Notes: generated by a model from the letters alone, not told the origin. A stretch of 52,576 bases of DNA from Perkinsus olseni (GCA_013115125.1 JABANN010000214.1:1-52576); one strand, 5' to 3'; numbered from the stretch's first letter, positions 2,063-49,699 are shown. Numbers and translations are program-made.

Positions 2063-2570
2063 CGCGGATGCCACGTGTACAAGGAGATGACCGCGAGATA
2101 AATCGATTAGAATGGCGAGCGCGAGACAGAGTGCGCATATTTCGCCTGGCGCACGCCCTCCTGGGAGTTGTGCGCGCGCCACGGCGTCAGGACGGAACGA
2201 TAAGAATTGGGGAGTTGAGTAGCGGAAGAAACTATACCGGACGAGATGGGCCACACCGATCAGTGAAAAACGTGTTTGTCGACTCAAACCTTATAGGGTA
2301 GGCCGCCTACCGTAGGCGAACGCAGGGGCGTCAACGTCGCCTGGCGGACCTGTCTGTGTTACACACAATACCGGCCGAGCATTTTTCACGATTTGCAATC
2401 GATACGGCTGTTTCCTCGCTCAGCTGGAGGCTGTTGTTGAACATTCCACTTATCTCTCGTACAGCCCATCATTTTGAACGTGCATATTTCCGATTTGCTA
2501 TCAGAATATCGCGGCCACTTGGATTTGCCGGGGAAAGCGTCCCTCCTCAGTCTCCGTCCTCCATGCATTA

Positions 2571-5500: not shown

Positions 5501-7474
5501 ATCTTGAGGCAAGAATGGCAGGTTCTCATCCAAGTTCGGCATTCTGGTTGGTGCGTATTCAAGATGCGTCAAACTTGGCATCGACATTTTTCCAGTCGAA
5601 AAATCGGGCTTCTTTCGAACTTGCATCCTTAGTGACAAACTTGCTTGTCACATTTTCATTCTTGCCTGTTCACTTGCCAACGGCACGTTGCCATCGGCAG
5701 GTTGTCAAACTTGCTCGGAACATGGCGTGTTACCCAAAAGGCCCTACCGGAATCATCTCTCAAGATGAACAAACTTGCATTTTCCGATGGTCCTGACTGA
5801 TTCTATATACTGCTTCCGTGCAACTTACTCCGAGTAGAAATCTACGAAGACAAGTTTCTCGGATACTTCGTACCAAAGCTTTCGGACTCCACTGATCGGA
5901 GATTTGGCGAGGTCACAGTCTGACTGCCATCTCCTGACGATGAACTAAATAGCCACCCGTTAGCCATCTCTCGGTCCCACAGAAGTTCCGTATGTATTAC
6001 AGAACTGTCTTTCAGGACGGTGGGATGTATGCACCAGTGGTCGCTTCTACAGCGCCTTCTGGTCTGTGAGTGTGAGGATGGTGTGGTGGATGCCGAGAGC
6101 TTGAAGCTCATGATGGATCGCAGAGAGTTCTCTGTGCTAAAACGAAAAGTTTCGTAAGCTGCGAAAGGGGCCCTTTCAGAGGGCTTGATGGTACATGCTC
6201 GACCGAGTCCTTCAGTTTGACTAAAGATGTTCACTTGAGATCCACCACAGACGATGATACCTTGCAAGAATCGGAGACCATGGCACAAGAGAATACCGAG
6301 ATCGGCAGCAGAGGTGCGAACCTCTGGGAGATCCTGCCTCCATCGGCTCTGTCTGTATAAGAGCCCCCCCCCCATCTACGCGAAGTTGCTACCGCTGTTC
6401 GGCGAGATTATCATCTTGATAAGGGACAGGGTTGTCTCAGACCCCGCTCCTGCTGGTGCTGGTGGTCCTCGGGGTAGAACGTCGAGTGGAGAACGCAAGC
6501 CGTCCTTGAAAGAGCTATCCGACAGGTCAGAATAGGCTGCGAATTTTACAGCACACAGTTTACCTTGGGATGAATACCAGGTACAACATTAACATCATCA
6601 GACTTGCATGGCTTTCGGAACAGTTCGGGACACTTTTGCCTGACGGACACGACGACTATCCCGATAATCCGCAGGTAACCAGCCGTGAGTCAAAGCCCAC
6701 GGCGAATGTGGTTCGCATAATTTCCCTCAGTCCTTATCGAAATCTGCCGTTCGAGGTCTCGCCGAAGAGCTTTGTCCAGAAATCACTGACGAAGAGTTCG
6801 AGGTACCGCTGGCTTGAAACACTTCCATTGACCTCTTTCTGAGAGATGAGCAGGACGCACAGTCGGGCAGAACTTGACGAGCTCCCTTGGGCGGTCAATC
6901 GCGTGATTTTGGCGGGCTCCTCACAGAATTAGTCCAATTCTATATCGTAACTGCAACTCGGATAGTCTGAAGTTTGACTGAGGTGTGAAGGCAGTGATGC
7001 ACTGTCTGAGGTAACTACAGCTCTAAGACGAGCAACGACGGAATCCAACGAAAGAGCTTTATCAGTCCAGGCTGACTCCATACGCGGTGTTACAGCGATC
7101 GCGATCGCGTTGTGTGACGCCGCACAACGGTCGAGTCTGTTTGCCAAGCTCTTGCATGAGAATTGGATTATACAGGGACACGATCTTCTCGTGATTAAAT
7201 AGAAATCCCCTCAATCCTGAGTCTCGAAAGTAGTCGCCTCTCGAGCAAGCGCTCAGCCGCTTTGTGACATGAAACTGGTTGTGCGATTGAGCGTCTCTCA
7301 GGCTAAATGGGAGATAATCGACGCAGACAGATCGGGCTCCTTAGAGTTCGATGAGTTCGTAGAGTGGATGGCACTTGACGAGTTTGATATTGACGATGGT
7401 GAGTATCAGCCGACCATAGGCTTTCTATGAAAAAACCAAAATCTTAACTGTCGTGTTTGACGCTATCAGATTGA
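2571..7474 (+). CDS. Multi-exon DPY30/RIIa-like dimerisation motif + EF-hand protein (probably flagellar Ca-binding)
   Basis: Manual splicing joins exons at about 2571-2759 (YLVESIWPILSRGLAAL), 3164-3356 (PLAWLAQYLLRNKP), 3605-3846 (DSIDFEEFWRWF), 4838-4943, 5040-5193, 6016-6148, 6424-6525, 6581-6674, 6731-6802 and 7302-7398 (DADRSGSLEFDEF, canonical EF loop). Stop at about 7472-7474. Some boundaries are approximate. Confidence 0.7.
5217..5768. mobile_element. Foldback/MITE-like element inside an intron
   Basis: Imperfect long inverted arms: TCATCTTG (5217) / CAAGATGA (5761) and a perfect 13-bp GCAAGTTTGACAA (5247) / TTGTCAAACTTGC (5702). Multiple AAGTTTG copies lie on the left and CAAACTTG copies on the right. 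Confidence 0.55.
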
Positions 7475-7604
7475 TCGGCGACACTCGTGACCAAGTGCTA
7501 AGGGTAGTCGTGGTAGCGTCTCAAGTCATGTCGTTGATGTGCTTGGCTTGGCAATAATATGGGTTGCGTTGGTGTTTCCCATGGCCTATGTGAATATGAT
7601 TCAT

Positions 7605-8046
7605 GAACGCTTACAGAAGATATGCTTTCCCCTGCTATGAAACCTCTGACTGCGGGGACTGGGAGAAAGGGACGGTATGGCACACCCGAACAGGGCATGT
7701 GTCACGTGCCTCTGTTGAGGACGACAGGCCAAGGAGCAATGCCGGTCCGTCTGCCATTGCACCGGAGTGCTGGGCGTGCGAACACGCAAGCACCCAAACA
7801 CTGGACTCGTCCAGCCTGGGAACCCTTGATGCCAGGGCTACCATGGCTCACCCGCAGACTCGGTTTAGGTTGAGGGTGGGAGCCTCCCACTGGGAGGGTT
7901 GAATTCCACCCGGAAATGCGGCGGGCAGGTCACGCGGAATGTCGCAGACCCGCTCACGCCGACGTAGCATAGAGGAACTGAGAAGAGAGGCAGTCGGAAC
8001 TTCCGACTCGGAAGGTGGTCCGCGCGTCTCCGCAGGACCACTCTTC
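7605..8046 (+). ncRNA. Unassigned structured RNA-like element, copy A
   Basis: Dense hairpins and a long-range stem AAACC..GACTGCGGG (7640-7656) / CCCGCAGAC..GGTTT (7851-7866). Shares motif order with 23530-23885. G-U pairs mostly favour the + strand. Confidence 0.5.
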
Positions 8047-8907
8047 ATGACTGCCGTGCACAAATTACCACTCCAGAAGTTAGTGACCGTAACGCAGCTA
8101 GAACTAGTATCATCATCAGAAACGACTAGCTTGAGTTGTGCAGGATTGTGTGACTACGTCGGACGTAGTACGTCCCCTGCTAGCGAAATCCCTCCGTTAG
8201 CGATTTCTCACTCCCCGTAACAGCTTCTCTCGGCGCGACTTAGCTCACTAGTTGATCAAAAGTGGTTGAGGGGCGAGTCCTCCAGTCGAAAAAGGTGAAC
8301 GACACATTGGAAGATATCGAGGCTCTTAACGGTAAGAAAAATTCCAGTATTCTCATCCGTAATACTGACATTCTGAATGCTGACACAGCGTCCAGTGCGG
8401 ATCGTGCGATACCTCTCGACGAGAAGTTCTCGAGAAACGTCGTTCAACGACACATCTAAGGATTACGTGGCTTCCGCTGGGTCTCAATTCGATACCGTTA
8501 ACTCTTGTTCCTTCATACTTTGGGAACTGCATTGACTCAACATCAAAGGCTAAGGTGAGATACTGTCAGTACTGAGTCATGGTGAATCATACTGCCAGTA
8601 CTGGTCAGTATCATACTGAGCTGTACTTGCGTAAGCTGCGATCAGTTGTTCGATGAAAGAACAGAAAGGATATCAGAGTGTACCATTGCGGATTCACTTT
8701 ATGCAGTACTCAGAGCTAAGGTATCGCAGGCTGCGTTTTGCGACCTAAATGCGATGGTATCGAAGAAGTCTCTGCTTGACAAAATGAGACTGGCTAGTGC
8801 TACAAAATTTCATCCAGTGTTTGAACCAATGTGGTTCGAGTACATGGTATTCAATACAAAGTCGTCGGTCGATGAGAGCAGGTGTGGGTAGACTCGGCCT
8901 AGGATCC

Positions 8908-9333
8908 TCAAACTGTAAAGAGTCTGCGATTACCATCACCACCACGACCACCATTGCCACCACGGCCGCCATCACCACCACGGCCGCCATTACCGCCATT
9001 ACCAGCACGACCGCCAGGGCCGTCTTCACCATCACGACCGTCCAGACCATCACGACCGTCTTGACCCTCTTCACCGTCACGACCGTCCAGACCATCACGA
9101 CCGTCTTGACCATCTTCACCATCACTACCGTCCAGACCATCACGACCGTCTTCACCGTCACGACCGTCTTCACCGTCACGACCGTCCAGACCATCACGAC
9201 CGTCTTCACCGTCACGACCGTCCAGACCATCACGACCGTCTTGACCGTCTATGCCATCATTGGTACTTTCTATGCTACCGACAATTGCGGCAGAAATCAG
9301 GAGTAGGAGTGAGGGAAGGAAGAAGAACTTCAT
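8908..9333 (-). CDS. Secreted Gly/Asp-rich repeat protein (141 aa): signal peptide, (DGRDG[L/E/Q])n, (GGx)n, C-terminal RRLFTV
   Basis: ORF with a hydrophobic N-terminus MKFFFLPSLLLLISAAIVGS and a Gly-every-third-residue repeat; architecture and C-terminus shared with 24668-24832 and 26559-26723. Confidence 0.8.
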   Translation of the reverse strand: MKFFFLPSLLLLISAAIVGSIESTNDGIDGQDGRDGLDGRDGEDGRDGLDGRDGEDGRDGEDGRDGLDGSDGEDGQDGRDGLDGRDGEEGQDGRDGLDGRDGEDGPGGRAGNGGNGGRGGDGGRGGNGGRGGDGNRRLFTV

Positions 9334-11038
9334 ATCTATGAAACGAATCTGAGCTCGAAAGCCGAGTCCACGAGAGTTCCAATTCCCGATAGTTCCCAGG
9401 TTGTTCTCGTTTGCGATTAAATGACGCTATTTAGAAGCCGACCACTGTTGAAGCGACGAGTGACCTGTGGCGGCAGGCGGTTCAGGCCTGGCCCAATCTC
9501 TCTCGGTCTCTTGTGGACGCACATGAGAGAACCAGAAGAGCGCCTGCCGCTCCTAAATGGAGAGGGGCTCTAGTGGAAGGCCTCTGCTCAACCCGAAACC
9601 TCATTACGCCGGCGCCACGCCTGACGAGCCCACAGGACAGGCTCCACCATATCGACCCGGTCAGTGACGCGATGCCACCTTTTTCCCGCCAGAAGTGTCC
9701 CGGTCACATTGACGGGGTCATTCCGGGCCGAAAAAGTCGCGCTCGATTTAATTATGACATCTTGCGGGTGTCATATAGCCATGGTCTATCCTGGTCGTGA
9801 TTCGAAGTACTGAAACGCCCAAGCATGCGCAGGTCTAGTTCAGGAAGTGCGTAACCTCAAACGTGGAGTATCACGAGTAGCCGGGACTTGACAACGCTCT
9901 CTCGTGTATTGTCCCACTCGGAGAACGGAGGTAATATTAGCAAACGGTCCCGAATGCGGTTAGTGTCTCTTGACGGGATTGCCCTCTACCGCTAAAGTGT
10001 CTTGCCATTGCGACCCAACGAATAGACTCTCAGCCATCATAGGTCAAACGCAATGTACAGATCAGGATAGGTACTGCTGGTACCGCATAATGCGGTATGC
10101 CCTCATTAATGCGGTCCGCATTTCTTCCGCATTTTCCAGGAGAAGTTTAATAAAGTTCATCATGGAAAGTGACATCGTAACTCGACGAGTTACTAACTCG
10201 TCGAGTTATCCTCATGCTATCGCCCTGAGAGTTCCTTCCGCCCTCAAATGAAACTCGCCCGGAGGCAGGCTTCGTGTCTGTGTTCCATACGAGCCAGAGC
10301 TCGTTAATGGCAACCGCGGTGAAGCTCTCCATTACCGTGAGGACGGAGGATGACAGAACCCAGAAAATCAGAGCATTTGGACCACGGCTTGCGTCCCTCG
10401 GGAGAGGCTCCATCTGCTTCTACTACAGATCAGTTTTCGAATATTATGGATTTGGTCAGGAAGAGCCTCATACTATATCTCTGGTATACGGTTCCGAATC
10501 GTTTTCCACACACGCCTTTCGCGAGGGTTCCCCATACACCACTTCGTCTTTGTGCTTCGTCGGTGCCTCCCGCATCTCCGCGGAGGATTCTCTGATTCTG
10601 ACTATCGGGATTGAAAGAAATTGAAACACACGGGTTCTGCTTTTTCGAGAGGTGTTTTCGGTATTATGTAAAAAACCAATTAGGCTTGAAGAAGTGACTG
10701 AGAAATCACATATCTTCAACCACAACTAAACACTGGCAAAGCAAGATTGCAATTCAACTCACATTTAGTTTCATGAGTGGGAAAAGTTGGAATTTTTTTT
10801 TGGTTTCCGTCAGCTATCTGAATCTCGACTCGCATTTCGTTACCGTGAGCGTTGATGAGCGATGGATGATGCCACTGTATTCCATCTATCTGTACTAGTG
10901 TACTTACGCTGTAGATGCTCCAACGAAGGAGTCGGCTAGGGTGGAATCGGCCGGGTTCGATCGGGGACCCAGCCACGCATCGGAGTAGCTGATTGCGATT
11001 AGTATGTGTAACATCTGGGCCTGAGTAATCGCAAGACA

Positions 11039-11385
11039 CTTTGCGTTTATGGTATGGATCATGATAGAAGAGCGATCACTCTGGCAGCTGATACCTTCGG
11101 TACAAGGTACGAAGATATTTACTGAAGGTGCGTCTCGCCGCAGCAACATACAAAAGTGCCTTAGCTGCCTTGGGGTTCATAGATACCTCAGGAATCCTGA
11201 GGCAAGGTCTCCCTCTGGGACCTATTATATTTAATTATATCTGGGACCTTATTATCGTATTTATACAGCATAAATTCGGTATTATAAATTATTCTTCCCG
11301 ACTCCTCGAGCCGCCAGACATGAGCTTCGGCACACTTCTGATAGAACACTTGGAGCCCAACGCAACAGGGTCTGCTTTTGAAAGG
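11039..11385 (+). pseudogene. Decayed, apparently intron-less fragment of the AsnB-like gene
   Basis: CGCCGCAGCAACATACAAAAGTGCCTTA..TGCCTTGGGGTTCAT (about 11136-11180) matches the exon at 16562-16606. Upstream 'HDRRAITLAADTFGT' matches parent 'HDRTSSEITLAVDTFST'. Frameshifted. Confidence 0.65.
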
Positions 11386-11725
11386 TTCGGTTTGAAATGA
11401 GGGTGATTAAAGGAGGTTCCCTAAAACGAGTCCGACCACCTCTCGGCTCGAGTTTACTATAAATTGTGTATGAGAAGAGACACAACGTGAAGTACAGCGG
11501 ACTTCGTCACCTCATGAACCCATACGGCTCGTGAACTTGATACCAATAGTGAAGATACCGAGCTTCAGGTTTCCAAACATTACCCGAAGTTTTCTAAATC
11601 GGGAAGCGAGATTTTCATAAATTTCATCAAGAGAAAGAGAGAGAAGAATCACGGAAAATTGAATCTCGTCCGCCTGTTCCCTTCTTTGCTCCACTAGGCG
11701 GCGAGGCGTGAGCGTAGAGAGTCAC

Positions 11726-13849
11726 CTATTTCCCCAACCGCTCTCGGAGTTGTTTCACCTGAACTCAGTTGTACTCTCAGAATTTGTTGGTGTACGCCAC
11801 CCACCCTTCCTTGGACGGCCATTAGAAGCTCTTCGGCGGCCTTCAATTGTCCTTCGTGGTTGCTTGGCTTTCTCTCTTCCTCTCGCAGCTTGCTGTAACT
11901 GCATAAATACCAGTTAGCAGCCCAAGGCCATTACTGGCCTACCTCAGGTGGATGGGAACCATCGGCGAAGGTATGCTGCTAGCTTTCTTGATGTCCCGCA
12001 GCCTTGCCTTTCTCGCCAGAGTCTCCTAACGTGATTAGTAACTCTCATTAAGGCAAGGTCTGACATGCACACTTCTTCCCAGGTTGAGTTCGGCTCTCTC
12101 CGGCTGCCGAAAAAACTCTGGAGAACGCCTCGAGCGATCGCTTCTGACCTGAAACGTACCCCCAAGCTCAACGCCAACAGACACATGAGCATTTTAGCTT
12201 AAAATAATGCTTACCCAGGCCCATGATTGCTAAGGAACTTGAGTTTCGCCGCCCTCCTGTTACCCATGAAGTCCTCAGTCGGCTCTTGGGTGAAACTCGT
12301 ATCCCCGTACTGCATGACATGACTGAAAATAGTCCGACGATAGCAAGAGGGGCAATTCTCGACTGAGCATCCGAATCACCTATCATTTGTCTCTTTTCTG
12401 ACCACATCATACTGATGCTGTAATGTCTCATTGTTATTTCTTGGGTCTTGTGTATCCTCATCCTCCATCCAGTTGACCGAAAAATGGTCTCCCAGGCAGG
12501 TCCCGAGGGAGACGTTGCCAACGACATCGTGCTGAAAATGAGCAAGACGTTATCAACCACATGCATGCGAGTGGGGAAAGTTGCACGGGGGAATTCTGTC
12601 CTACTGGAGTGCAGTAGGTGGCAAAGCTGGATTCATTCTCATTGGCGGCAGTGACATAATATCTACAAACCACGGCGGAATAAAAATAGCATCCTCAAGC
12701 TGAGGGCCCAATTAGCGTTTACTGGTTGGGAATAGTTGGCAGCCCATCGAACATACTGCCCGACTCGCAGGCCTCAACGTAGAAAACTAACTGTTTATAC
12801 CTGAACCCAAGAAACTTAGGAAAGTCTGTGCTGTTGGAGGCACACATTTTCTTGGTCTCCATAGCCTCCAGCCATGACCGAACTTGCTTCTTGCTGATCG
12901 ATGTGTCCAATAGTGCCAAGATTCCCGCTGAAAAGAAGGCTCGAGCTGAACCGCCGGGCCAATTCATAAATAATATCAGAACAGTTCGTATGGTATTAAG
13001 GCTTTTACAGTATAATACAAATAATATATAACAAGAACTGGAGATATAAATCTATTATAATTGATATTATTAGGAACATGAAGCTGCGAGCAGGGCAGAG
13101 GTCCCCTTACGCCCTCCATGATCCACGAAATTAATGAAGACGTAATCGTCCTTGGTGCTCTTCAAAACTCTCCCTGTAGCAAGCGAGGTATCTCCTGTCA
13201 GGACCTGCAGAGACGGGCCTCTTAGTATAGGTGGATGTAACTGGAACTGATCGCACCGCATGAGCGATGACACGATGCCATTGGCGTCACGGGGCGGAGG
13301 AACCTCTCGAAGATGGGCCAGCCTACCCCTTCCACATTTTTCACCGTGACCTCGTCATAGCTATAATCTACTTTGCAACCTTCGTAGACGTCCACGCCAG
13401 GATCGGTGCCTGGCATGGAGAGTAGCTCCATATTTGCGCAGCTGGCCCACCTGTTGGTTCGTTGAATAGTTTTCCGGGATAGGGGTTCATTGGGTCATTG
13501 ACGACGTCGTTGTACCTGGGGACCCACACTGTAGCATGCGCTGCTGCCGTTCATCCTCTGCTCACGAAAAGGTGATGATGTGTTCTTCCGGAATGCCATG
13601 CCTTTTGAGGATCTGATAGGCATGGCATATGTCAGCTTGATGGCGGTAGTTGTAGTAACCGTTAGAACCAGCGATGAGGACCTGATATCACGAATTAAGG
13701 CCATCGACAAGTTCAAGCTTCCATCCACAAAGCAGGTCAATCGTACGTACAGCCCAGTGATGCGACCCTGAATTATCGCCCAGCGGTTGCGAGACCCCAA
13801 TTGATGGGCTAATGCAGAGAAGTGCAGCAAACGCTACAGAGAGAGTCAT
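11726..13849 (-). CDS. Legumain / asparaginyl endopeptidase (peptidase C13, vacuolar-processing-enzyme-like), multi-exon, signal peptide
   Basis: Spliced motifs: [54 protein letters not shown] (catalytic His), [14 protein letters not shown] (catalytic Cys), [36 protein letters not shown]. Confidence 0.93.
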
Positions 13850-14139
13850 GCTGCAAGCAGAGATTGAAAAGTTCTGAGGGAGTTTAGGCAGCCTCTCTAT
13901 TCGTTCAGTTCGGAAAAGCCCCCCCTCCCTGGCGATCCCGAGCAAGATATAACGGGTGCACTATAACTCAGTATAGTGTGGCTATTTGAGATGGGGCTCA
14001 AAGAAAGGTAAAACCGGACTCGAGAGGAGTTCGGGAAACTGATGTAGTTGTTGGATTCAGAGTGAACGTATGCTCCATAGCATGACGAGGAACACACGTG
14101 TTCACTAAGACGAACGTACGTAGTACATACCATGAGCAA

Positions 14140-14286
14140 AGCCCGGCTATATTCCCGGGAATTTCCGGGAATTCCCGGGAAGAATCTCAACCATTCTCCC
14201 AGGGAATATTGAGCATTCTTTCTTCCCGGGAATTTTCGGAATTCCCGGTAAGAAAGAATAGCATTCTTCCCCGCTGGGCCACCCTA
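14140..14286. mobile_element. hAT-like MITE remnant built from TTCCCGGGAA palindromes
   Basis: Several copies or variants of TTCCCGGGAA; the right end reads TAGGGTGGCCC on the minus strand, resembling a hAT terminal repeat. Confidence 0.45.
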
Positions 14287-15018
14287 AGCGAAGGCGCACA
14301 AAGAGCAAGGTCGGTACGTAGCAGCAATGAAGGTAGTTGTCCCCACTTATAATTCATCGCTGAGTTCTACTCAGCGAGTGCGAATCCAAAGGCCACTCTA
14401 GCGGACGATCAGATGCCGCCAACACTGACGAGACATTCACTGCTCGAAAGCATCAAGATGAGCCACGCAAGCCCGGTTTTCGATAGACCAACTAGAGTGG
14501 TCACTGGCCGCTGGTCGGCACTGTGGTGGGCCGTGCGCACTCCGCACAATACAACTGTACGAACCGCGCGGTACGAACGTGGAAACTGGGGGACGCTGTC
14601 CCAGCTGTACCCCTTGGCATGCGGCGTACGACTCGTATGATACGAGATACATGGAGAATTCATGATGAGGACCGTGGACCACGGTGTCGACCCCGCGCAG
14701 ACTTTTAAGGGGCAGATTTCGATAAGATGTACCTTGGCGGCCTGAGGGCCTAAACAGAAGGTGATGGAATCACCGTGGTCCTCAGTAGATGAAAACAAGA
14801 GAGATTCGTATCGGTAAGGTGCTCCTGCCTCGGAGCTAATCAGTCATGGGTTGTAACGATCAAACTCACCTGACGTGAGTAATTGGACTGTAGTTTCTCT
14901 GTAGTAATTGGAAGTTTATGGAAAAGATGACCTGCTTGTGTTATACCAGCTTGTGTGACCAGTTACAGATCCGTCCTTACATTGGCGTGTGTCATGTAGT
15001 TGGTGTGAATTTATCAGC

Positions 15019-18000
15019 ATGGGTTTGTATTCTCCCTGCTTGCTTGCTTCTCTGGCCTGTATCGGGGATGCCTGCAGCTTTCTATTCGCCAACTTCCCTG
15101 TGAGCGATTTGGACGCCCAGAGGGTTAATAGATGGATGAAGCGCCGCGGACCCGACACCACAAACGTATGGCGAGATGCACATGGCAAGTGAGTCACGCA
15201 CGAAAGCAAACTCTCTCCTATGATATGATCTGCCCGGGGCTCGCGCTCTCCTGACTTGTTCTGCCGTATCAAGCCCTGCTCACAAGCTCGCTGTGAGCAG
15301 AGCTCGACCTTAATACGAACGAGCCATGGTCTTCACCGATTTCAGATACACGTACGTCCACAATCTACTCCACATGACGGGAGAAGTCGTGCAACAGCCA
15401 CTACGGTAGGCTAGTTCAACACTCAGCGAAGGGTGTATTGTCTTATTATACGTGATAATTTTCCTTGATGTCCCAAGTGACGGCTCCCACTGAGCCTCAA
15501 GGCTCCGGCTAAGACACATCACGTCTCCGTGGCGCCTGATGACTTTACACTCATGTGACGTCAGCATTATTCTTGAAATGAGTACCGAACACATTCTTAG
15601 AAGAATTCTGAACACAACAAGAACACAGTGAAGAACATAAACACAGAGTTTGTGTTCTCCTGCCGTAAGACAACTGCGCATTCCCCCACGCGCACGTACA
15701 CAATCCTATGTTATCACCTGTTGACCCTACGATACCATTGAATCCTACGAGACCGAATGTTGATCCCACGATACCCTCAAATCCTACGATACCCCCCGTT
15801 CATCCTATGACACCATATGACCCCTCTACGACACCATTTGACCCTGCTACGATACCTGATAACGATTCTACGGCACCAGTCAGTTCTAACTCTTCAATTA
15901 ACCCTGTCACGGTTTCGGCTTCTGGGACGCGCTCTTTGAGTGCGGGACGGGGTCCGGCGCAGGATGCGGTCGAAAATATTGAGGGGCGTATATTTGGTGG
16001 TCGGGTTCCTCCTGGTAGAACTCGCCTAAATAATGGGGGGTAGGCCTTTCTTTTTTCCAGCTCGGATGACGAGGATATGGTAGCATTGTTCAACGGTGAA
16101 ATTTACAACTGGGAGGAGCTGGCAGAAGGGAACGATTCTATCATATCAGACGGGCAGGTTATTCTCCCCCTCTACAGGTTCGAGTGTCCATGCATGAACC
16201 GCGTGGAGTGTACCGCTCAGGGACCTTGGCATCGACGAATTTGTTCGTCACCTTGATGGTGAATTTGCGATTCTGCTCCATGACAGAACCAGCAGCGAAA
16301 TCACTTTGGCTGTTGATACCTTCAGCACAAAGCCACTCTGGTGAGGATCTTAAAGAACGCTCTCTTATCGACGGCAAGGTGACGAACGTTCACCGCCTGC
16401 TTTTTACGATGTGCAGTTTGACACGTTGAGTTCTATACCCTAGGCTAGGGTCCCTAGCTACGAACTAGTCCGCGCTGCCCATCAGATCCCTCAGAAAAGA
16501 CCTGCCGAACCTCTGCGTCACCGGCGGCCTCGGTCAGGTTCGCTAGGGAAGGCTCTCGTTTCGCCGCGGCAACATACAAAAGTGCCTTATATGCCTTGGG
16601 GTTCATCGTGAGTTGCCCGCCGCTCGTACAGTTCTGTATCCTCGGAAGCTTTTCAGGACGCCAGTTCACGAATGGTCAGTCCTAATAGGGTCCTGGTTTT
16701 CGTGGAAGACGATTCAGGCAACGTAGATCTCTCCCGTACGATAACCGTCACAGAGTTCGACATAAGGCAGTACAAGGTGATAACCTGGCCGTTCACCGAG
16801 AGTTGCTGGGTCGTCTTGATCCCATTCCTCATCAGAGGATGATCTCATGTGGATCACAGAGTGAAACAAGGAGCTCACCGCCTTTAGATTCTAAGGCTCA
16901 GAACTCGACGGATACTGTGACATATTGACCTATTGAACTCACGCTCAATGGCTTACGCTAGAGCAAAGGGCACTAAGATATCACTAACGGGCTCACGCCA
17001 TAGAGACAGATCGAACACAATGGCGTACCCAAATGAACAATGATTGGAAAGGCGGTTCACTAAAGAGAGTGTGCATCTGATTATCGCTTGAATGCAGAAG
17101 TCTACGGCCGACTTTGAGACCGCTTTCATCGATGCGCTGAGGAAGAGAACGCGTGCCGTTCGGCATCCCATTTTCATCGGGCTCAGCAGCGGGTAGGCGT
17201 CTGCAATAAGGGAGCTATCGTGAGCCGGAATACTGCTATTCGCACTCAGTCACGACTCGGGAGCTATCCATCTCGGCCTCTTACACTTGGGATTGCACCA
17301 CACCGCAGTGACCATTTCGGGCGACGAGGACCTCACTGTCGTTGAGAACAGGTGCGAAAACAGCAGCGTCTGCGCGATGCACTACTAGTTCAGTAGACCT
17401 GAGTTCCCGATTCAGGGTCAATCAAGGGTCCGATCTAAATGAACACTGGCTGCTTGCGATTTCGAGCCGAGACGACGAGGATGAGGCCAACTGGGTGGAA
17501 GCCGAGGTTGAGCACTTCAACTACACACATGAGGCGTACCTTAGTTGCGACTTTAGTGCCCTCAAAGTCGGCGATTTTTCAGTGACCTTCCGCCTTCCTT
17601 ATCCACCGACCAGGCTTCTAGAGGCCTCTCACTCATCTGCAGGCATATGCGTGATCAGGGTAAGCACAAGGTGAACGAACAGCAATACCAGCTCAGACTC
17701 GTCCCGCGCATAAAAGTTCGCTCATTGTTGATCCATCCCATCTTCAAGGCGCATTGGTGTACCTCTCGGGGACGGGAGGTGACGAGGTCTTGTCCGACTA
17801 CGCCTTCAATGGCACGAGGTTCGGAGCTCAGTCGCAGTTCGGCGGCCTTTGGCCAAGGGATCTCCATAGTATCTTCCCTTGGGGCACGTTATTTCTGAGT
17901 ACGCAAAGGGACTACTTGATGAAAGAGGTGTGTGACGCACTCGCGCCCTGCAGGACTCGTCACTTCTTGCTCAGGAGCTGGTGGCCGGCTCACATGGTGT

Positions 18001-18246
18001 CGAAGGCCGTTACCCCTTCTTGGACCGCCGAGTGGTGCAAGAATGGCTATGGCTCTCGGCAGATGTGAAGAACTCAGCATACAAGGTTCACACTACCGGG
18101 CCCTGACACAGCGAGGGCGATTTCAGGCTCCGTTGAAAGTTCTGTTCGATACACTCAATTATCCCTATTTACCGACCAAGGTCGGCTTCTCTGTGATGTC
18201 GAGGCAACTGCCCTCTGACGAGCCAGTGAGCTACCATACTCTGTGA
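15019..18246 (+). CDS. Asparagine synthetase (glutamine-hydrolysing)-like amidotransferase with N-terminal signal peptide, about 13 exons
   Basis: Spliced motifs: CSFLFAN..RRGPD, HNLLHMTG..QP, LFNGEIYN, LDGEFAI, DTFSTKPLW, IGLSSGHDSG (PP-loop), VYLSGTGGDE, EGRYPFLD, K-x-GF; stop at 18244-18246. Confidence 0.9.
15708..16043 (+). other. Pro/Thr-rich repeat ORF nested in intron 2 of the AsnB-like gene (possible retroelement remnant)
   Basis: ATG-initiated 111-aa ORF with DPTIP/NPT repeats lying between AsnB-like exons 2 (ends about 15405) and 3 (starts 16061). Confidence 0.3.
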
Positions 18247-19357
18247 TTACGAGGCAGAGTGGTTCAGCTTAGACCCACATATGGAAGTCCCACCTACATG
18301 CACCTCGGTTTTGTCCTCCGCCATTGCCGACAGATCTCATCTCAAAGGGAGTGCATTATGTGCGTCCATCGTAACTTGGAATCACAGTTAATTCGGCCCA
18401 CTTCTGCACGGCTTTCCACGTGCCATGGGGTCCTAGCATCATCTAAGAAGGCGAGCTAGCTTCATGAGCACATATTGATGTGTACCGCGCGCCCGTTCAG
18501 TCGGCGCAATCGCTCGAACTGCCAGGCTGGAATGCGAAGATTTTTTATCCTCGCATCAGCAACATGTTCCTGCCATTGTAGGCGTGCCCTGCGGGTGGAA
18601 TCAGTTCTCCTTGGGGAGACAATAGATGCTCCCTCGCTACCTGTCAGAGCGGCCGTGTTCTCGTAGAGAATACCATGAGGTGCACCCACATGGGTGAGCC
18701 AAATAGCTCTTTCTAACTCATGCTCTGGAGCCCTTCGGTGCTCATCAGGCACATGGACGGGCCAAGTAATCTGCCAAGATGCACGCCCAGAAGCAGAAGT
18801 GTGGCCGACCCTTCAACCGCCCAAACCTGTTATAGAACACATCGAACAACTCCCCTCACCACAAATGGTAGCGGCGTAACTGGAAACTGCGTCACATCTC
18901 AATAAGGCGTCCGACTCTCTCGACATTCGGTGAAGCAATCAACCTGGATAATCTCTTTAATGTTATTCCCTATCAGCACAATGACGTCGTGTGACACGAA
19001 ACCGTGACGGCCTCCCAATCGCTTGCTGAGTGTATTACGGTTGTTCGGAGAGTTCAGCCATTACTTCTCGATAGTGTTCCCGCTGTTTTTTCGTCTAATC
19101 TTTTTATCAGGGAGCCCGAAGCGACTTGCCGGTTACATGCTCATTTCCTAGTCTTTGAGCTATTCTTGGACGTTTTGCCGCAACGTCTCGACAAATACAC
19201 TACTTTCTTCATAACCGTTATGGCCGTTATTATATAAGTCCTCGGATATGACGTCTTCGAACGATCGTCGATTCGACGATCGTTTTACCCTATTGGGTAC
19301 GATGCGACCTTATTTTTGAATACTATGGCAGAGGAACTCGTCTGAGTCGACAACCCG

Positions 19358-22300
19358 ATGGTTCAAGTTCTTAAGGGCTACGCCGTTGCCCAAGTCCAAC
19401 CCCTGTGAGAAACCGCTGAGCCACCGCCTCTCTCACGCGGCATGCACACACAGCACAGACCTCATGATAGATTGGCTCGAGGGTATCCGACTCACATTAT
19501 CCACCGTACTGTCAGAGCGCTGTCTTGGTAGTCAAAGACGCTATGCGGGGGGCTGCCGAAGCAGCTCAAAAAGGCGACCTTGCTTCTTTCGTGAACGAGA
19601 AGATCCTACCCTCTATAATAAGATACCACAATATACTGGCGTTCCACGATGGCCCAATGGCCACGGACTGTAAAACAGCGTGCGAGTAGCGAGTCGGGTC
19701 ATACTTTGTCCGTATCAGGTCTGATAGGGTTGCTAACCATGAGGATATTCGCGTTCGCGATTCTGACAGATTCAGAAGGCACGTCAACGAACGAATTTGA
19801 CGAGTGAGCTCCCTCGGTTGTTTGGTCGAAGTTGCGGGGGAAGTTGCTTCCGTTTTGCAGGAAGTTCAGTCCTCAATTCGTCCAACTCCTCGAGAATCTC
19901 ACTCTGGGTGAAATCGTCATGTCCGGCTGGGCAAGAGGGCTCTTCGAATTTCTCCTGCTCGCCTTCGAGAGGCTGGGGCTGGTTGACAGGGGTGCTGTCG
20001 GCGGCGCGTGCTCACAAGTATGCTGCACACTTTTCTCTGTGGTTCTATTATAAATGTTTGCCTTCTCGACAGACTCGATGCTCCCGCGAGTAATCGACGC
20101 GAGCTTTACTCGCTCATTGTCGAGTAAAAATGATTCTCCGAACAAGGTTTTTGCCCTCTATTTAGGACTTCCAAGATGAGAGCTCCCGGGCAAACTGTTT
20201 TTACAAGAGAGTTCTATCTGCGGTAAGTAATGCGTAACGGACTCTATCGCTAGAAGCACGACGTGCTTAGCACGTCCGCTAGGCCTTTTTCAGGCTAATG
20301 ATGGAGACGTTTATCGAGTGCTGGGGGACGTCAATGTCGAACTGTATGACACTCTTCAGGATTCGAGCTTATCAGAGTTATCAGAGCGATGCGCTTCTCG
20401 GGAACGCCGCCGCCTTTCAGAGTCCGATGAACTCGTGGTCACGACGGGCTTTTCTTCAGGTTTCGCCGGTCTTGTGGAGAGCGATCGTGAAATCCTCCGC
20501 CATATTGAGACCCGAAGCAGATGTCCAACCAGCAAGCCCATCGCTCGCTTGCCCTCTTGGAAGAACTTCTTACCCGATTGACCCCAGCCGTTGGGAATGC
20601 AAAGCCCTGACACGACGATCAACATCCCCAAGCTCCTATAGGTGAATGCTGGGCTATCGTACCAAGTTGGTACGACAACGAGATCAGTATGCGAGTTAGG
20701 CGGGGTGGGTCATTAGCTGAACCGGGTGAAAGGCGATGCACCACTCCTTATCCAACTTCGACGGTGGATAGTATTTTTTTCCATGAGTTTCTTTGCTGGA
20801 ATCGTTCCGAGACTCGACAAAGATGTCGAGAGGGCAAAGCTTGACAGACATTTGCCGCTGTTTTCGCTCAATCCTTCTCTTTACCCAAGGCCCGTTCCCT
20901 TATTCGGAACCGACTGTCTCTCGGCGAGGGCAGTTGGTCGGGAGTGCGGGAGAGGACCAAGCACTGTGAACCCGAGGCCCGAACCCTTTCAGGGTCTCGC
21001 CTTGGGGTAGAACCATATAGCGTACGGCAAGAAATTCCCTGGTTCATGAGAAATTCACCGTCGAAGTGGATAGTAGGTAGCGGGTTACCCTTCATATCTC
21101 TCCACGTCCGACCAGCCAGATCTACTGTTATTCCATTGGGGCGGTCTTGCATACACATTGGCTTTTTGTCAATCGTCGGTCTAGTGGACCGACGTTTGAA
21201 ATACAGGCTCTCGAGTACCTGTAGTACGGGCTCTCATGACGGATGTCTCTGGTGGACAAGGCGTCAATGTCAACGATAGATATCTTTGGACTTTTTGCTC
21301 CCGCTTGGTAGAACTCTGCAGGTACTGCATATTTATGACGGATTCTAGGGCGGTTGAAACCGTCGGTGTAGCGAAAATGAGCAATGCCTCGGTGGTAACG
21401 CTCACGTATGAAGCGAACAAGCTTTACTGTAAGATACTCGGTAATTGCGGCGTATATTTCAACGTAAGATCGTCCTTGACTGCCTCGGGCTAGATTTTCT
21501 CGTAGGTGCCTGATTCGGTTGCCGACTACCCAGAGAGGAAGGTTGGCTGGGGCAAGATCTCGGTGATGATACGCGAGATGAGTCGGAGAGAAGAGGAGTG
21601 CGAGTTCGGTGTCTCCATAGACACTGATGCCTACTTCAGTGAGCCATGATATTTACATAAGCGGATTGGCAGAGCTCAATGAAATGGCGCATGTTGAACT
21701 TCAAGTCGCAGTCTCCATTGGAGACTCTCCAACTTGTCGGCATTCGCCAACACTCTGCTAGATTCTAGCAGCTAGAAGACTTTTCGGAGCCACACTGTAT
21801 AGCCTCTCTCGTGCGACGGAGTAACCCACATGTCGTACGACCAACTGGAAGGATCTACCCCGCCCTTGTGGTCAATTTCAGGCTGAGCGTTTCAGCCCGA
21901 AATTTTCAGGGACACGCGAGAATCTCGATAATATCGTTGAAGACTTCGAATTAGATGGGCCCAAGCTCGTGGGGATAGCAGAAGAGTTTCATCAGGAAGA
22001 GCTAGGTCAGTAGGATAATCGCGGGCAGGGCATTCTCAATTCGTCGTCGTTCAGAGTTCGAAGACTCTTTTCCCCGAGGACACGGCATTGGTTCTTTTTT
22101 CATTGTCCGAAATCATGAAGAGGGACGGCAAATACTCCGAGAATGGTGAGCCATCAGACTCGGCGGGGTGTCTGATAAACTGGGAAGCTCCTTGTCGAAA
22201 TACAACGGTCGTTGAAACCGGGCCCTGAGGCGTTCCGAAGAGGCGTGTAGTCCAAAGTCATTTCTCAAAAGTCTTTCCGGGTATCATCTGGTGAGTAACA

Positions 22301-23359
22301 GCAGAGACGAGATAGTCGCTGCTTTCCTCCTCGATCCCACACTCATGTTGGCAGCCTTTGTGACGAGCCTTGCGCGGGCAGTTTGATCGTAGTATTGAAC
22401 AATATGCCCGATGCCAATTGACGGCGCAATGGGGCCGCTATGTCAACTGATGACTACAGTGAGGCCGCTGTGCCAGGGCTTGGCCACATTGAGTCCGCCA
22501 TTCGGCATAGCCCACGTCAGGTCTCGGCCGCAGTTGGGCAACCATGACAGGTCTCGGGCGCAGTGGGACCTCTCGGGAGTCTGCAGAGACCAGCAATCAG
22601 ATTGATCTCCAACCTCGTGACTTCACTGCTGCTGAGTGCGGTTGTGAATGAAGCCTAGTCCAGGCGCTGAGCAGAAATACAACCATCCTGATTCAGAGCA
22701 AATCCGTAACACTTCATACTATGGAATATCTGTACTGACTCAGTGAAATACGGGATCAATAGGCGCCATTGACGCTTGCATATCCGCCCTCGTTGACCGC
22801 GACGATTGCAGAGAAAGTGGAATGCTGCATTTTCCACTACAGACTGTCTGTAGTGTGTCGTAACCTTGAAATTCTTCAGACGAGGGCTTGCCACTTAAGC
22901 TCGTCCGATTAGAGCGAAGAAGCTCTCGTTGCGTGAGTCATGACACGTGAACAGGAGTGCAGCTTCCCTGTTAATTCTAGCGAGCCGCTTCGAAACTTTC
23001 CAGGTACGATGCTCCTGTGAAATATGATTCTCACCGTAGATTGCTCAAGGAGAACCCGCAAGGACTCAACTTCTGTTGGGATACCATCGTGCACGACTCT
23101 TACACGGCTAAAGTACTTTAGAGCCTTCACGATGGCTCCCTTTTTGACTGTGTCTGTTTTTTAGATAGCTTATTTTCCGCCACATCTGTTCTCGGCGCCC
23201 CAGAGCCTGCTAGTAGAGCATAATTGGTTCAAGGACGAAGCTTTCCGTCAAAAACTGATCCGACACATTCGAGCATCTCAAGTACTTTCTATTCACAGTA
23301 CACAAATATTAAGTGCCTGTTTGCTTCGGTAGGGGCAGTCTAAACGTTCCATCATGTAA
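19358..23359 (+). CDS. Multi-exon GT34-like (galactosyl/xylosyl/mannosyl-transferase, GT-A fold) glycosyltransferase; start uncertain
   Basis: Spliced exons give 'TYEANKLYC', 'KVGWGKISVM', 'VSIDTDAYF' (DxD), 'GSFFIVRNHEEGRQILREW', 'LLVEHNWFK'. Upstream exons from about 19360 appear phase-compatible but are less certain. Confidence 0.65.
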
Positions 23360-23529
23360 AAGCATGTTCATGTCCGCGGATTCGGGACACACTGTGTCCG
23401 ACACAGACATATTGTCTCCCTTGTGTTTTTGAATCATTTCTCTGTGATATCTTGCCAGCGTTGCGTACCATTCGGGAGACGCCATGGATAGTTTTCTGTA
23501 CCACCGGAGCGCAGCCCACGGAAGGACCA

Positions 23530-23885
23530 GACTCACGCGGGTTTCTATGAGTGACTTTTTCTCCGCGAGTGAAACCTCTGAGTGTGGGGAGGGGGAGTGG
23601 GGCGTGCGAGCACCGGAACCTGAGGCAAGCGCAGTTCCGTGAGAGAGCTCTCGGAACCGCCGAAACCCAAGCGATCACGGACTTGTAGGCCCATGAAAGC
23701 CGAGTATTCGACCAAGCACCTTGCCCTGGTAACGGTGCTAGACACGTCCAGCCCGCCCCATCCTTTGAATGGTGACGAGCTCACCCACACTCTCGGTTTT
23801 GCAGGGTTCAGGGAGGGTGGCTAAAACGAAAAGAGAGGACTGGCGGCGCGACCCACGCGTCTCCGCAGGGACGCAGCCGTCTTCC
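23530..23885 (+). ncRNA. Unassigned structured RNA-like element, copy B
   Basis: Same motifs as copy A in the same order (TGAAACCTCTGA, GAC.CGTCCAGCC, GCTCACCC.CA..CTCGGTTT, AAGAGAGG, CGCGTCTCCGCAGG); stem GAGTGTGGG (23580-23588) / CCCACACTC (23784-23792). Confidence 0.5.
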
Positions 23886-24667
23886 TCCCGAATATAAATG
23901 AGTCAAATCAACTCAAGTAGCCGAAGACAGAAACAGAGTCTGATACTAGCGCTGGCTGTGCAGCTGGTGTCCCACTGCTGCACCTTTGTGTCGAATGTCC
24001 CCACACGGCCGGCTTCACCGACGGTATGTGACTTCGTCCATACCTTCACATGACGGTCGACGTGTTGGCGAATCCAACCGCAGGCTGGGACAAATCGGGA
24101 CACAAGCCCATTTGTGACTCGCTTTTTCGGTTGGTCTGTAGAGTTTGCGGCTTTGAAATCAAAGGTTGATCGTGGTGAATCTCACGGCGTGTTGAAATTG
24201 GAACTTCGACTGTGATATCCAGCTCGCGTCGCTAGTCTAGCAGGGCCAGCCTAAAGGTTCCTCGAGCGAGAAAAGCAGAAGGTTCAGTGTGGTTTTTCTC
24301 TCTCGCCAAGATCATCTCGGAGGCTTCACGTCAGAATACTATTGATCTCATGTCTGTTTAGTGATCGCTCTCAACTTTGGATACCCCGAAAATGCCACAG
24401 ACAGGCGCAACACAAGACCAAGCCCTAAGATACGATCAGAAGTGTTGAGGTTGATGGAACACACTCTCGGAACTATACTGGATCCGTAGAACAGACCAAT
24501 ACGATAGGCAGAATTGGGAAAGCGTCAAGTGCCGAGCTCAAAAAGCTCGATCATGAGTGTCAAGATAGATCATGACGGATCCGCATGGTGAGGTGGTCGG
24601 GGCAGAGTCATTCATCCGATCATCAAAAATAGGGTACCCGTATTAGTGCCCCCCCCGCGAGGCTTCC

Positions 24668-49346: not shown

Positions 49347-49513
49347 AATGCATTAACAATTACCGCAACTGGGAAGGTCTGGCCGTGATTCGTGGGAGGG
49401 ACCACGATGACGGCTCCGTTCTGCATACGGTTGAACCTGATGAGAACTCTTCTGAACACCCTGCCTCTTGATGAGTATAAAAGATATTTCACTCGTGCAC
49501 AGGGTCCAATATG

Positions 49514-49598
49514 CTCTCAACCTCACAATAAAGATACTCTCAACCTCACACTAAAGATACTCTCAACCTCACACTAAAGATACTCTCAACCTCACACT
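49514..49598. repeat. Tandem repeat, 23-bp unit CTCTCAACCTCACACTAAAGATA x about 3.7
   Basis: Units start at 49514, 49537, 49560 and 49583; no spacers. Confidence 0.95.
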
Positions 49599-49699
49599 GA
49601 GATCGACCTCGCACTATCCGTGAACACAGGTCCGTGAACTCACAGCTTAAATCCATATACGAAGGAGGCGCACTTGAGGATGAAAGCTGGCAATGCGAG

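Follow-up and report, generated by a model that had tools for sequence, protein, structure and literature searches.

A dispersed, probably mobile non-coding repeat with preserved RNA pairing in the mollusc parasite Perkinsus olseni

What are the two diverged segments that share short motifs, strand and motif order within a single stretch of Perkinsus olseni DNA? We analysed the whole stretch, 52,576 nucleotides long (the 52.6-kb window), for which an earlier note had proposed two copies of an unassigned structured RNA. The segments are here called copies A and B of a unit X. At a probability of roughly 0.55, X is a short, non-coding, non-autonomous interspersed repeat of P. olseni that moves via a structured plus-strand RNA.

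Two homologous copies without coding potential

All six motifs listed in the earlier note were recovered by sequence reading and pattern scans, each exactly twice and in identical order in both copies. Across the window, exact sites of TGAAACCTCTGA were confined to 7638 and 23570 (at up to two mismatches, six sites against 5.98 expected), those of CGCGTCTCCGCAGG to 8023 and 23856, and those of GACNCGTCCAGCC to 7804 and 23741. GCTCACCCNCANNCTCGGTTT occurred twice against 0.03 expected, a count reached in 0 of 100 shuffles, and direct reading placed GAGGGTGG at 7872 and 23813 and AAGAGAGG at 7983 and 23831. The shared blocks were colinear by blastn, and reciprocal nhmmer queries of the 52.6-kb window (E 1.3e-5 and 3.7e-5) confirmed that A and B are homologous; at maximum sensitivity, nhmmer found no third X copy in the window. 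Outside the conserved blocks and helices the copies were otherwise unalignable in an anchored alignment, and the 3' tail was weakly alike (nhmmer E 0.2-1.8). The 5' edges, earlier put at 7605 and 23530, were moved to the family edge at 7638 and 23570, and copy A, thought to end at 8046, was found to extend to 8172.

7638..8172, plus strand: copy A (X_A), 535 nt, non-coding; bounded by the 5' edge common to contigs of three runs, likeness reaching 8160 and the direct repeats
23570..23886, plus strand: conserved core of copy B (X_B), from blastn, nhmmer and anchored alignment; 3' end uncertain, possibly ~24040
7628..7637, no strand assigned: direct repeat TCCCCTGCTA, 5' copy, a putative target-site duplication from the repeat search; abuts the family 5' edge exactly
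8173..8182, no strand assigned: direct repeat TCCCCTGCTA, 3' copy, from the repeat search and shuffle test
8153..8169, plus strand: terminal palindrome ACTACGTC-G-GACGTAGT, from sequence reading; 3 nt short of the 3' direct repeat

X is non-coding, as had been supposed: stops occurred in every frame of B, the shared blocks lay in differing frames, and six-frame reading gave no reading frame common to A and B. No protein relative was found for the 100-aa ORF of A (7600-7899). When ORFs of at least 20 aa from 3000-13000 were compared with 13001-52576 by tblastn, only short X-unrelated blocks were matched, bar one; this lone X-related match spanned 16 aa and reflected the DNA block. Among the 119 ORFs of at least 95 aa in the window, none was recognised as a reverse transcriptase or transposase, which counts against our preferred reading.

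X was also without a credible Rfam match, in keeping with the failure to assign it before. When cmscan was run on 7300-8400 and 23200-24200 with an E limit of 10, the sole matches were DUF3800-XI (12.8 bits, gathering score 37.8) and CRISPR-DR15 (16.7 bits, gathering score 36). No Rfam match in X to tRNA, SRP/7SL or 5S RNA appeared even at E 10, nor any at E<=10 to the self-cleaving ribozymes in Rfam (hammerhead, HDV-like, twister and others). The only string in X resembling the B box of an internal polymerase III promoter, picked out by eye against the consensus, sits in a segment missing from B.

A kinship with RNase P or RNase MRP RNA had been raised on the ground of a possible CCUCU/AGAGG pairing. 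The two strings lie close to the 5' and 3' ends of X respectively, and the 5' block resembles the first conserved region of these RNAs. That X is a divergent member of either family is effectively refuted. Neither model matched 7300-8400 or 23200-24200 at E<=10 or reached its gathering score anywhere in the window, a P1-P3 region before the 5' block is lacking since the family begins there, and X is multi-copy with a flanking duplication, where RNase P and MRP RNAs have only one or a few genes in a genome. In the folds, moreover, the 3' part of X formed local hairpins and did not pair back to the 5' end. The CCUCU/AGAGG pseudoknot proposed earlier is possible as a pairing; because both strands are invariant, it affords no covariation test.

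Dispersal, ends and surroundings of the repeat

The X region was compared with four public runs, two of them only guessed to be RNA. None of the runs listed for X is recorded as RNA, in itself no argument for or against its expression. In run X9, whose type (DNA or RNA) was a guess, 17 contigs aligned on 7100-8600; two had an identity of 99% or more, one of 95-99%, eight of 90-95% and six of less than 90%, and 9 of the 17 aligned only partly to the stretch. Position 7746 alone was covered by seven different contigs. Contigs of X9 (two), X11 and X12 began to resemble A at 7637/7638, with at least three different sequences upstream of this common 5' edge, and likeness to A extended as far as 8160 in the public contigs. 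Two X9 contigs joined 7674 to 7845 and 7676 to 7843 (sides of 34 and 20 letters); some members of the family thus miss 166-170 nt, and others carry 14-nt indels. No contig of the four runs aligned on 7100-7609, on 8171-8374 or on the neighbouring block Y_A (see below). Contig depth was 6-42 on X against 3.6 on a lone flank contig (8382-8554), a hint only, as these depths are not readable as copy number. X therefore has many diverged copies in varied contexts, a sharp common 5' edge and deletion variants. With members of about 370-535 nt, the family is a many-copy, dispersed and probably mobile element of this mollusc parasite. A search of metagenome, viral and prokaryote genome contigs for the 5' motif, two of its positions being left free, gave 0 stretches. 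A block-3 pattern recovered 54 metagenome stretches that were rejected as chance, their blastn matches (E<=0.01) being confined to the pattern and a few bases (21-31 nt).

An exact 10-nt direct repeat brackets copy A, touching the independently defined 5' edge on one side and lying past the last likeness (8160) on the other; an equal repeat anywhere in the flanks arose in 43 of 2000 shuffles. No direct repeat was detected in the flanks of copy B (700 of 2000 shuffles as good), a point against the repeat reading. The repeat search of 7618-8192 gave no terminal inverted repeats, only internal inverted pairs; one half of the terminal palindrome can also pair with 7959-7967. X_A begins with TG and finishes with CG, and sequence reading found neither an A-rich run nor a simple repeat at its 3' end. 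X thus shows neither the head of a SINE nor the termini of an LTR or MITE and is assigned to no class, and the absence of both an A-rich tail and a tRNA-, 7SL- or 5S-like head also speaks against the repeat reading. The 17-25 nt upstream of TGAAACC were rich in pyrimidines in both copies and, judged by eye, in one of the upstream loose ends of the contigs. These leaders weigh further against that reading, since they hint that the element may begin further upstream; in that case the 10-nt repeat could belong to the element itself or reflect a preferred target. Terminal direct repeats as part of the element were considered and dropped, because the leaders and tails of both copies aligned unconvincingly when all four were compared.

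X could instead be a solo LTR, a piece of a small tandem or LTR-type element, or a MITE-like derivative of a DNA transposon. The TG start agrees with this, two upstream loose ends in the contigs terminate in a purine-rich run (GAGGAGG) that resembles a polypurine tract, and the opposite orders of X and Y described below could be remnants of X-Y-X. LTR elements make duplications of 4-6 nt, and duplications of 9-11 bp fit some DNA transposons. The 10-nt duplication falls within the latter range and outside the former, but it flanks X_A alone. X_A ends with CG rather than CA, nhmmer found no second X within reach of either locus in the window, terminal inverted repeats are lacking, and RNA-type pairing with G-U would be unexpected in a MITE. 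We regard this reading as rather improbable. The earlier note had itself named ordinary LTR or MITE fragments as an outcome that would undo its proposal; a dispersed, probably mobile repeat is indeed what emerged, but with neither LTR nor MITE hallmarks.

Both loci also contain a second conserved block, Y, outside the repeat.

8199..8341, plus strand: block Y_A, starting 27 nt past X_A, from nhmmer and alignment to Y_B
23161..23307, plus strand: block Y_B, ~260 nt upstream of X_B, from nhmmer and alignment

Y_A and Y_B matched each other with nhmmer E of 4.2e-9 and 9.5e-9. The order is X-Y in locus A and Y-X in locus B, so duplication of a single segment carrying X does not suffice to explain the two copies, and this opposite placement means that A and B arrived independently. 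Both copies nevertheless lie less than 300 nt from a Y block, which is unexpected under random insertion and argues against the mobile-repeat reading. Y was rejected as an exon: the 3-base periodicity of its mismatches was weak (23/10/13) and the frames disagreed across a 1-nt indel. Two protein matches of a 55-aa ORF in Y_B (E 1.9e-10 and 4.3e-9) were uninformative, as they involved tandem-repeat proteins with one weak match counted eight times. Little consensus structure was found in Y on either strand. We also discarded the idea that locus B represents the target of insertion A before it was occupied; the upstream flank of A was unlike the sequence before Y_B, and 1570 of 2000 shuffles were as good.

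A minus-strand gene for a secreted glycine-rich/collagen-like product was observed 0.6-0.9 kb to the right of X in both loci; at a third paralogue of it (26527-26971), nhmmer found no X. The product of a neighbouring gene was 97% identical to P. olseni proteins, and other short dispersed repeats were present in the window, a point in favour of the repeat reading. If X were a conserved UTR or cis-regulatory element shared by two loci that a segmental duplication had made paralogous, the presence of Y and of the glycine-rich gene in both loci would be accounted for. The reversed order of X and Y, the X copies with other flanks in public contigs and the X-free third paralogue make this very improbable.

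Base pairing preserved between the copies

Folding placed the following elements in the two copies.

7641..7656, plus strand: helix S1, 5' strand in A (AACCU, CUGA, CUGCGGG), from MFE folds and consensus fold
7851..7871, plus strand: helix S1, 3' strand in A (CCCGCAG, UCGG, AGGUU), from fold and consensus fold
23573..23588, plus strand: helix S1, 5' strand in B, including GAGUGUGGG, from fold and consensus fold
23784..23808, plus strand: helix S1, 3' strand in B, including CCCACACUC, from fold and consensus fold
7675..7844, plus strand: inner part of the S1-closed domain in A, missing in some members (two X9 contigs)
7880..7979, plus strand: ~100 nt of hairpins between GAGGGTGG and AAGAGAGG, in A and not in B, from anchored alignment and fold
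8015..8041, plus strand: 3' hairpin in A, with lower stem, 2x1 internal loop and GCG-UCUC-CGC, from folds
23842..23881, plus strand: 3' hairpin in B, with GCG-UCUC-CGC top, 2x1 loop and another lower stem with G-U, from folds

The long-range stem covaried as the earlier note had described, with CUGCGGG/CCCGCAG in A replaced by GAGUGUGGG/CCCACACUC in B and two pairs changed on both sides. All 16 of the 16 pairs of helix S1 were standard in both copies, each of which had a U-G pair there; when the 3' partner was shifted by 1-3 columns, 0 two-sided changes remained and just 25-45% of cells paired. The 3' hairpin also proved to be kept on differing lower stems, with GCG-UCUC-CGC and the 2x1 internal loop in both copies. 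Two compensated pairs in its lower stem (U-A to C-G both times) brought the total between A and B to four, in two helices.

How far this exceeds chance depends on the control, and the two-sequence covariation was weak under two of three, which tells against the RNA-borne repeat reading. The standard covariation shuffle, which cannot reach significance with two sequences, gave 129/500. Randomising only the letters at substituted columns yielded a comparable helix in 26% of 300 trials when the whole alignment was used and in 22% of 1000 when it was limited to reliable columns. When the positions of the nine substitutions were randomised over the 73 reliably aligned columns, at least two compensated pairs appeared in 21 of 5000 trials, and by this control base pairing in X is preserved via compensated changes in the two helices. 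A third copy, 95% alike, differed by 13 substitutions, eight of them at paired positions of A's fold; six of these eight retained the plus-strand pair, five as G-U, which is A-C on the minus strand. Fold z-scores were slightly better for the minus strand (-3.3 and -4.8 vs -3.0 and -2.8 for the plus strand), a point against a plus-strand RNA. The YNMG-type CUCG/CACG loop, earlier said to be kept, is not: the third copy has 7808 C>G, and the stem of the loop has an A-C mismatch in B. A telomerase template, a hammerhead and an HDV-like topology were dropped by eye, as no such motif was common to both copies and S1 is a plain coaxial stem, not the nested double pseudoknot of HDV-like RNAs.

These pairings also fit a gene family whose product is a structured RNA peculiar to perkinsids and active in the cell, perhaps as an RNP scaffold; the other copies would be paralogues or retro-pseudogenes. 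The conserved blocks and four compensated pairs outlast the divergence of A and B, the wobble pattern favours one strand, Rfam holds no matching model, and a transcription start would likewise give a sharp common 5' edge. Yet the 10-nt duplication flanks copy A, many copies are diverged, truncated and internally deleted, some lack the entire inner domain, and the 3' tail is poorly kept between A and B. We consider such a gene family possible but unlikely. Quite unlikely, too, is a gene family with retro-copies of a perkinsid-specific structured RNA (~370-535 nt) that has its own function and could be a new RNP RNA or a retroelement RNA. In the latter, the conserved 5' helix and 3' hairpin might perform a step such as self-processing, which would account for the sharpness of the shared 5' end; the X-Y association would then mean that insertion is directed to the vicinity of one type of locus. 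Of the unassigned structured RNA put forward earlier, the lack of an Rfam family, the non-coding nature and the kept pairing stand, but a new class of cellular RNA gene is not supported. The many diverged copies, differing flanks, 10-nt direct repeats at A and placement on opposite sides of Y speak against a cellular RNA gene as against the RNase P/MRP kinship.

Returning to the mobile repeat, we infer that X is transcribed and moves through an RNA intermediate with a partner enzyme. X would spread via an RNA copy of its plus strand, in which the first ~20 nt (AACCU-CUGA-CUGCGGG) would enclose a variable domain by pairing with a segment ~200 nt downstream. Two purine-rich blocks (GAGGGUGG and AAGAGAGG) would follow the closed domain, then the conserved hairpin (GCG-UCUC-CGC above the 2x1 internal loop) and a tail that is kept less well. 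The copying machinery, presumably a reverse transcriptase encoded elsewhere, would most likely recognise the blocks and helices still shared by the diverged subfamilies A and B.

Significance and comparison with known systems

Mobile elements of Perkinsus are barely described; listings from literature searches included no report of short retroposons in the genus, and the papers found with the 12-nt motif were unrelated. A curated X model would make it easier to mask repeats and annotate genes in Perkinsus genomes. X insertions, which vary from copy to copy and perhaps from isolate to isolate, could also give strain-typing markers for a commercially important mollusc parasite. The case also urges caution, as compensated pairs and conserved blocks in two nearby copies fit subfamilies of an RNA-borne repeat as well. 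If X were a functional lineage-specific RNA, it would represent a new structured RNA class in alveolates.

X is similar in length to RNase P/MRP RNAs and its 5' block could pair with a 3' purine block, but it lacks their 5' helices and closing helix, fails both Rfam models and is dispersed. Among the few described mobile-element groups of the genus are the Dada DNA transposons of Perkinsus marinus, 4.7-11 kb long, with a DDE transposase and 6-7 bp duplications in tRNA genes; they insert in or beside small RNA genes (PMC3706591). This habit recalls the X-Y association, but X, being short and non-coding, is unlike them, and Y does not correspond to any recognised RNA gene. Solo LTRs and TRIM-like elements resemble X in size (0.35-0.55 kb), TG start, flanking direct repeats and the adjoining block Y. 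X differs from them in its CG rather than CA end, a duplication of 10 rather than 4-6 nt, no paired copies in the window and no identified primer-binding site.

SINEs are short interspersed elements moved by the reverse transcriptase of LINEs. X lacks their tRNA-, 7SL- or 5S-derived head in the Rfam search, the end of copy A lacks an A-rich or microsatellite tail, and the window has no RT ORF. Strictly defined, the term SINE should not be applied to X, because it has no small-RNA head, no A-rich tail and no known partner LINE. What it shares with SINEs is that it is short, non-coding, dispersed and multi-copy, with a defined 5' end common to its members, subfamilies marked by deletions, central blocks conserved between diverged subfamilies, a flanking duplication of ~10 nt at copy A and a conserved RNA structure.

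Two related copies and a dispersed family

X is a dispersed structured non-coding repeat of Perkinsus olseni, an alveolate that parasitises molluscs. It lies on the plus strand as copy A (7638-8172) and as copy B, whose conserved core spans 23570-23886. The earlier note had described two related copies sharing six motifs in one order, and this observation is real: each motif was found exactly twice within the 52,576-base window.

Motifs shared by copies A and B, with positions in each
7638 and 23570, TGAAACCTCTGA (pattern scan of the window)
7804 and 23741, GACNCGTCCAGCC (pattern scan of the window)
7846 and 23779, GCTCACCCNCANNCTCGGTTT (pattern scan of the window)
7872 and 23813, GAGGGTGG (direct reading)
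7983 and 23831, AAGAGAGG (direct reading)
8023 and 23856, CGCGTCTCCGCAGG (pattern scan of the window)

For GCTCACCCNCANNCTCGGTTT, the 2 matches in the 52,576-base window compare with 0.03 expected, and 2 were reached in 0 of 100 shuffles. The copies are homologous (nhmmer E 1.3e-5 and 3.7e-5), their blocks are colinear by blastn, and nhmmer found no third X copy in the window. Block-anchored alignment gave identity at 161 of 431 columns; between the blocks A and B could not be aligned, which agrees with the differing inter-motif sequence reported before.

X is a dispersed family. Parts of copy A were present in 19 public runs from 11 studies (X1-X8 being DNA; 0 of 19 recorded as RNA), and the contigs of 4 of these runs were aligned to 7100-8600 at 80% likeness. 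Seventeen contigs of one run, X9, fell on this stretch in identity classes of 2, 1, 8 and 6, nine of them only partly; the copy-number inference rests on the contigs of this one run, whose type (DNA or RNA) was guessed. At position 7746, seven different contigs overlapped, and all seven were unlike the window there. Likeness started at 7637/7638 in two X9 contigs and in one contig each of runs X11 and X12, with at least three unrelated sequences upstream of this edge, and likeness to the X family extended to 8160. No contig of the four aligned runs lay on 7100-7609 or 8171-8374. Two contigs lacked 166-170 nt (7675-7844), and others varied by 14-nt indels. Contig depth was 6-42 on X against 3.6 on the single flank contig, a hint only. 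Runs labelled as two other organisms held pieces 95-98% like X, which could be from infected-host samples and were therefore not counted as cross-species conservation.

An exact 10-nt direct repeat, TCCCCTGCTA, was found at 7628-7637 and 8173-8182, where it abuts the independently defined 5′ edge of X and comes after the last family likeness. Shuffles of the upstream 40 nt matched anywhere in the 361 nt downstream (8040-8400) in 43 of 2000 trials, and the exact abutment on the 5′ edge makes chance even less likely. The direct repeat and the 5′ edge therefore delimit copy A as 7638-8172 (535 nt). Its 3′ end is CG, with a palindrome at 8153-8169, and a repeat search found no terminal inverted repeats. 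For copy B the 3′ end is uncertain and no flanking repeat was detectable (700 of 2000 shuffles did as well). A pyrimidine-rich tract of 17-25 nt precedes TGAAACC in both A and B and, judged by eye, in one contig loose end. The real 5′ end of X may therefore lie elsewhere, and the 10-nt repeat may have another meaning.

RNA structure, strand and coding potential of X

Copies A and B folded more stably than shuffles on either strand (z-scores: plus strand -3.0 and -2.8, minus strand -3.3 and -4.8). Two helices were common to both, a long-range helix near the 5′ end (S1) and a 3′ hairpin. S1 pairs the first ~20 nt of X with a segment ~200 nt downstream, as AACCU/AGGUU, CUGA/UCGG and CUGCGGG/CCCGCAG in A and with GAGUGUGGG/CCCACACUC as its final part in B. 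The covariation earlier proposed for this stem was recovered, with 16 of 16 standard pairs in each copy and two pairs with both partners altered (C-G to G-C; C-G to U-A), although its significance depends on the control used. When the partner was slid by 1-3 columns, 25-45% of cells paired and compensated pairs numbered 0. The 3′ hairpin likewise keeps GCG-UCUC-CGC and its asymmetric (2x1) internal loop in A and B, and two lower-stem pairs are compensated between the copies (U-A to C-G). A YNMG-type loop (CUCG vs CACG) had also been thought to be kept, but a third copy differs there (7808 C>G).

The covariation statistics rest on two sequences and have little power: in a shuffle control the observed helix values were reached in 129 of 500 trials, and letters-only randomisation gave a comparable helix in 26% of 300 trials (substituted columns, whole alignment) and in 22% of 1000 trials (reliable columns). 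Position randomisation of 9 substitutions over 73 reliably aligned columns, by contrast, gave at least two compensated pairs in 21 of 5000 trials. What stands out from these controls is that, of the 9 substitutions in conserved blocks, 4 pair with one another.

For the strand, 13 substitutions of a 95%-alike copy were placed on the fold of A. Eight fell at paired positions; two of these disrupt the pair and six preserve the plus-strand pair, five of the six via G-U (A-C on the minus strand). A U-G pair also lies within S1 in both copies, and a G-U pair within the hairpin of B. On this modelled fold, the G-U pattern therefore favours a plus-strand X RNA, whereas the fold z-scores do not.

Copy B has stop codons in all six frames, the shared blocks of A and B occupy different frames in six-frame reading, and a 100-aa ORF spanning copy A had no relative among the proteins searched. 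At the gathering score, the sole Rfam match in the window was a tRNA at 29566-29638 (minus strand, 67.6 bits). The earlier failure to match X to SRP, snRNA, tRNA or a known ribozyme was upheld, since the two X regions, searched at E up to 10, gave only one chance match each, DUF3800-XI (12.8 bits vs a gathering score of 37.8) and CRISPR-DR15 (16.7 bits vs 36). The CCUCU/AGAGG pairing, suggested before as an RNase P/MRP-like pseudoknot, is possible and invariant, but X is extremely unlikely to be either RNA: among RNase P, MRP, SRP, snRNA and ribozyme models, none matched the two X regions at this threshold.

Surroundings of the two copies

Features near copies A and B
8199-8341, conserved block Y_A, 27 nt downstream of copy A (nhmmer)
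23161-23307, conserved block Y_B, ~260 nt upstream of copy B (nhmmer)
8908-9426, minus strand, secreted glycine-rich/collagen-like protein gene, right of the copy A locus
about 24650-24864, minus strand, secreted glycine-rich/collagen-like protein gene, right of the copy B locus
26527-26971 (also given as 26527-26741), plus strand, inverted paralogue of the glycine-rich gene

Block Y (~145 nt, ~70% alike between loci) is within 300 nt of each X copy, downstream of A but upstream of B, and Y_A matched Y_B (nhmmer E 4e-9) more strongly than X_A matched X_B. Random insertion leaves the proximity of both X copies to Y unexplained. That X is a conserved part of duplicated loci is very unlikely; nhmmer found no X near the inverted paralogue at 26527-26971. 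Judged from the arrangement, the simplest history would be duplication of a Y-spacer-gene segment, with X inserted twice on different sides of Y.

Y itself is apparently non-coding or a broken exon, with weak mismatch periodicity (23/10/13), reading frames interrupted by a 1-nt indel and little consensus structure. Two protein matches of Y were rejected as tandem-repeat artefacts. Runs of pyrimidines ending in AG lie upstream of Y in both loci.

The three secreted glycine-rich protein genes make up a small family. In the one at 8908-9426 the start resembles a signal peptide, and the G-x-y repeats (GDG/RDG) have a 9-nt period and match Pfam Collagen at E 8.9e-10. Those at about 24650-24864 and 26527-26741 are 82% alike and inverted to each other. 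Lying after Y_A and ahead of the collagen-like gene, 8518-8715 aligns with its own reverse complement (nhmmer E 0.001).

Other features of the window
650-2287, minus strand, 545-aa ORF, Na/Ca exchanger, 97% identical to Perkinsus olseni proteins (P. chesapeaki 76%, P. marinus 80%), which assigns the window to P. olseni
13929-14042 and 35732-35842, dispersed repeat of ~105 nt, inverted to each other (nhmmer E 2e-12)
14138-14265, palindromic CCCGGGAATTTCCGGGAATTCC cluster adjoining the 13929-14042 copy
35448-35514 and 35599-35665, 67-nt direct repeat adjoining the 35732-35842 copy
11123-11183 and 16547-16609, 60-nt block, 5.4 kb apart, 50-nt core 92% alike (nhmmer E 8e-9); may be a further duplicated segment or repeat
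11038-11107 and 16262-16332, weaker colinear block accompanying the 60-nt pair
36144-36986 and 37557-38510, two paralogous ORFs in tandem at ~1.53-kb spacing, ~80% alike across 284 nt, no Pfam match
49508-49621, tandem array, 23-nt unit x4, AAGATACTCTCAACCTCACACT-like

Identity of X

Our preferred reading, with a rough probability of 0.55, is that X is a short mobile element, non-autonomous and probably carried through RNA. Its conserved helices and blocks would then be requirements of its copying machinery. Among 119 ORFs of at least 95 aa in the window, none was a reverse transcriptase or transposase, and the only Pfam families matched were Na_Ca_ex, Collagen and Peptidase_C13. The earlier interpretation as a novel structured RNA stands in part: RNA-type structure is conserved, but X is unlikely to be a new ribozyme-like RNA of the cell. 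A family of functional, lineage-specific RNA genes with retro-copies is an unlikely alternative.

X adds a new family to a known kind of element, and text searches of the literature on Perkinsus transposable elements, retrotransposons, SINEs and RNase P/MRP gave no account of such an element or of these RNAs. X fits none of the established classes. With no tRNA, 7SL or 5S head and no A-rich tail, it does not qualify as a strict SINE. Nor does it qualify as an LTR, which would end in CA and carry a 4-6 nt duplication, or as a MITE, since inverted ends are missing; a derivative of LTR-like or DNA-transposon origin is quite unlikely. The Dada DNA transposons of P. marinus, the subject of the single relevant paper found (PMC3706591), target tRNA genes and differ from X in size, in coding and in the length of their duplications.
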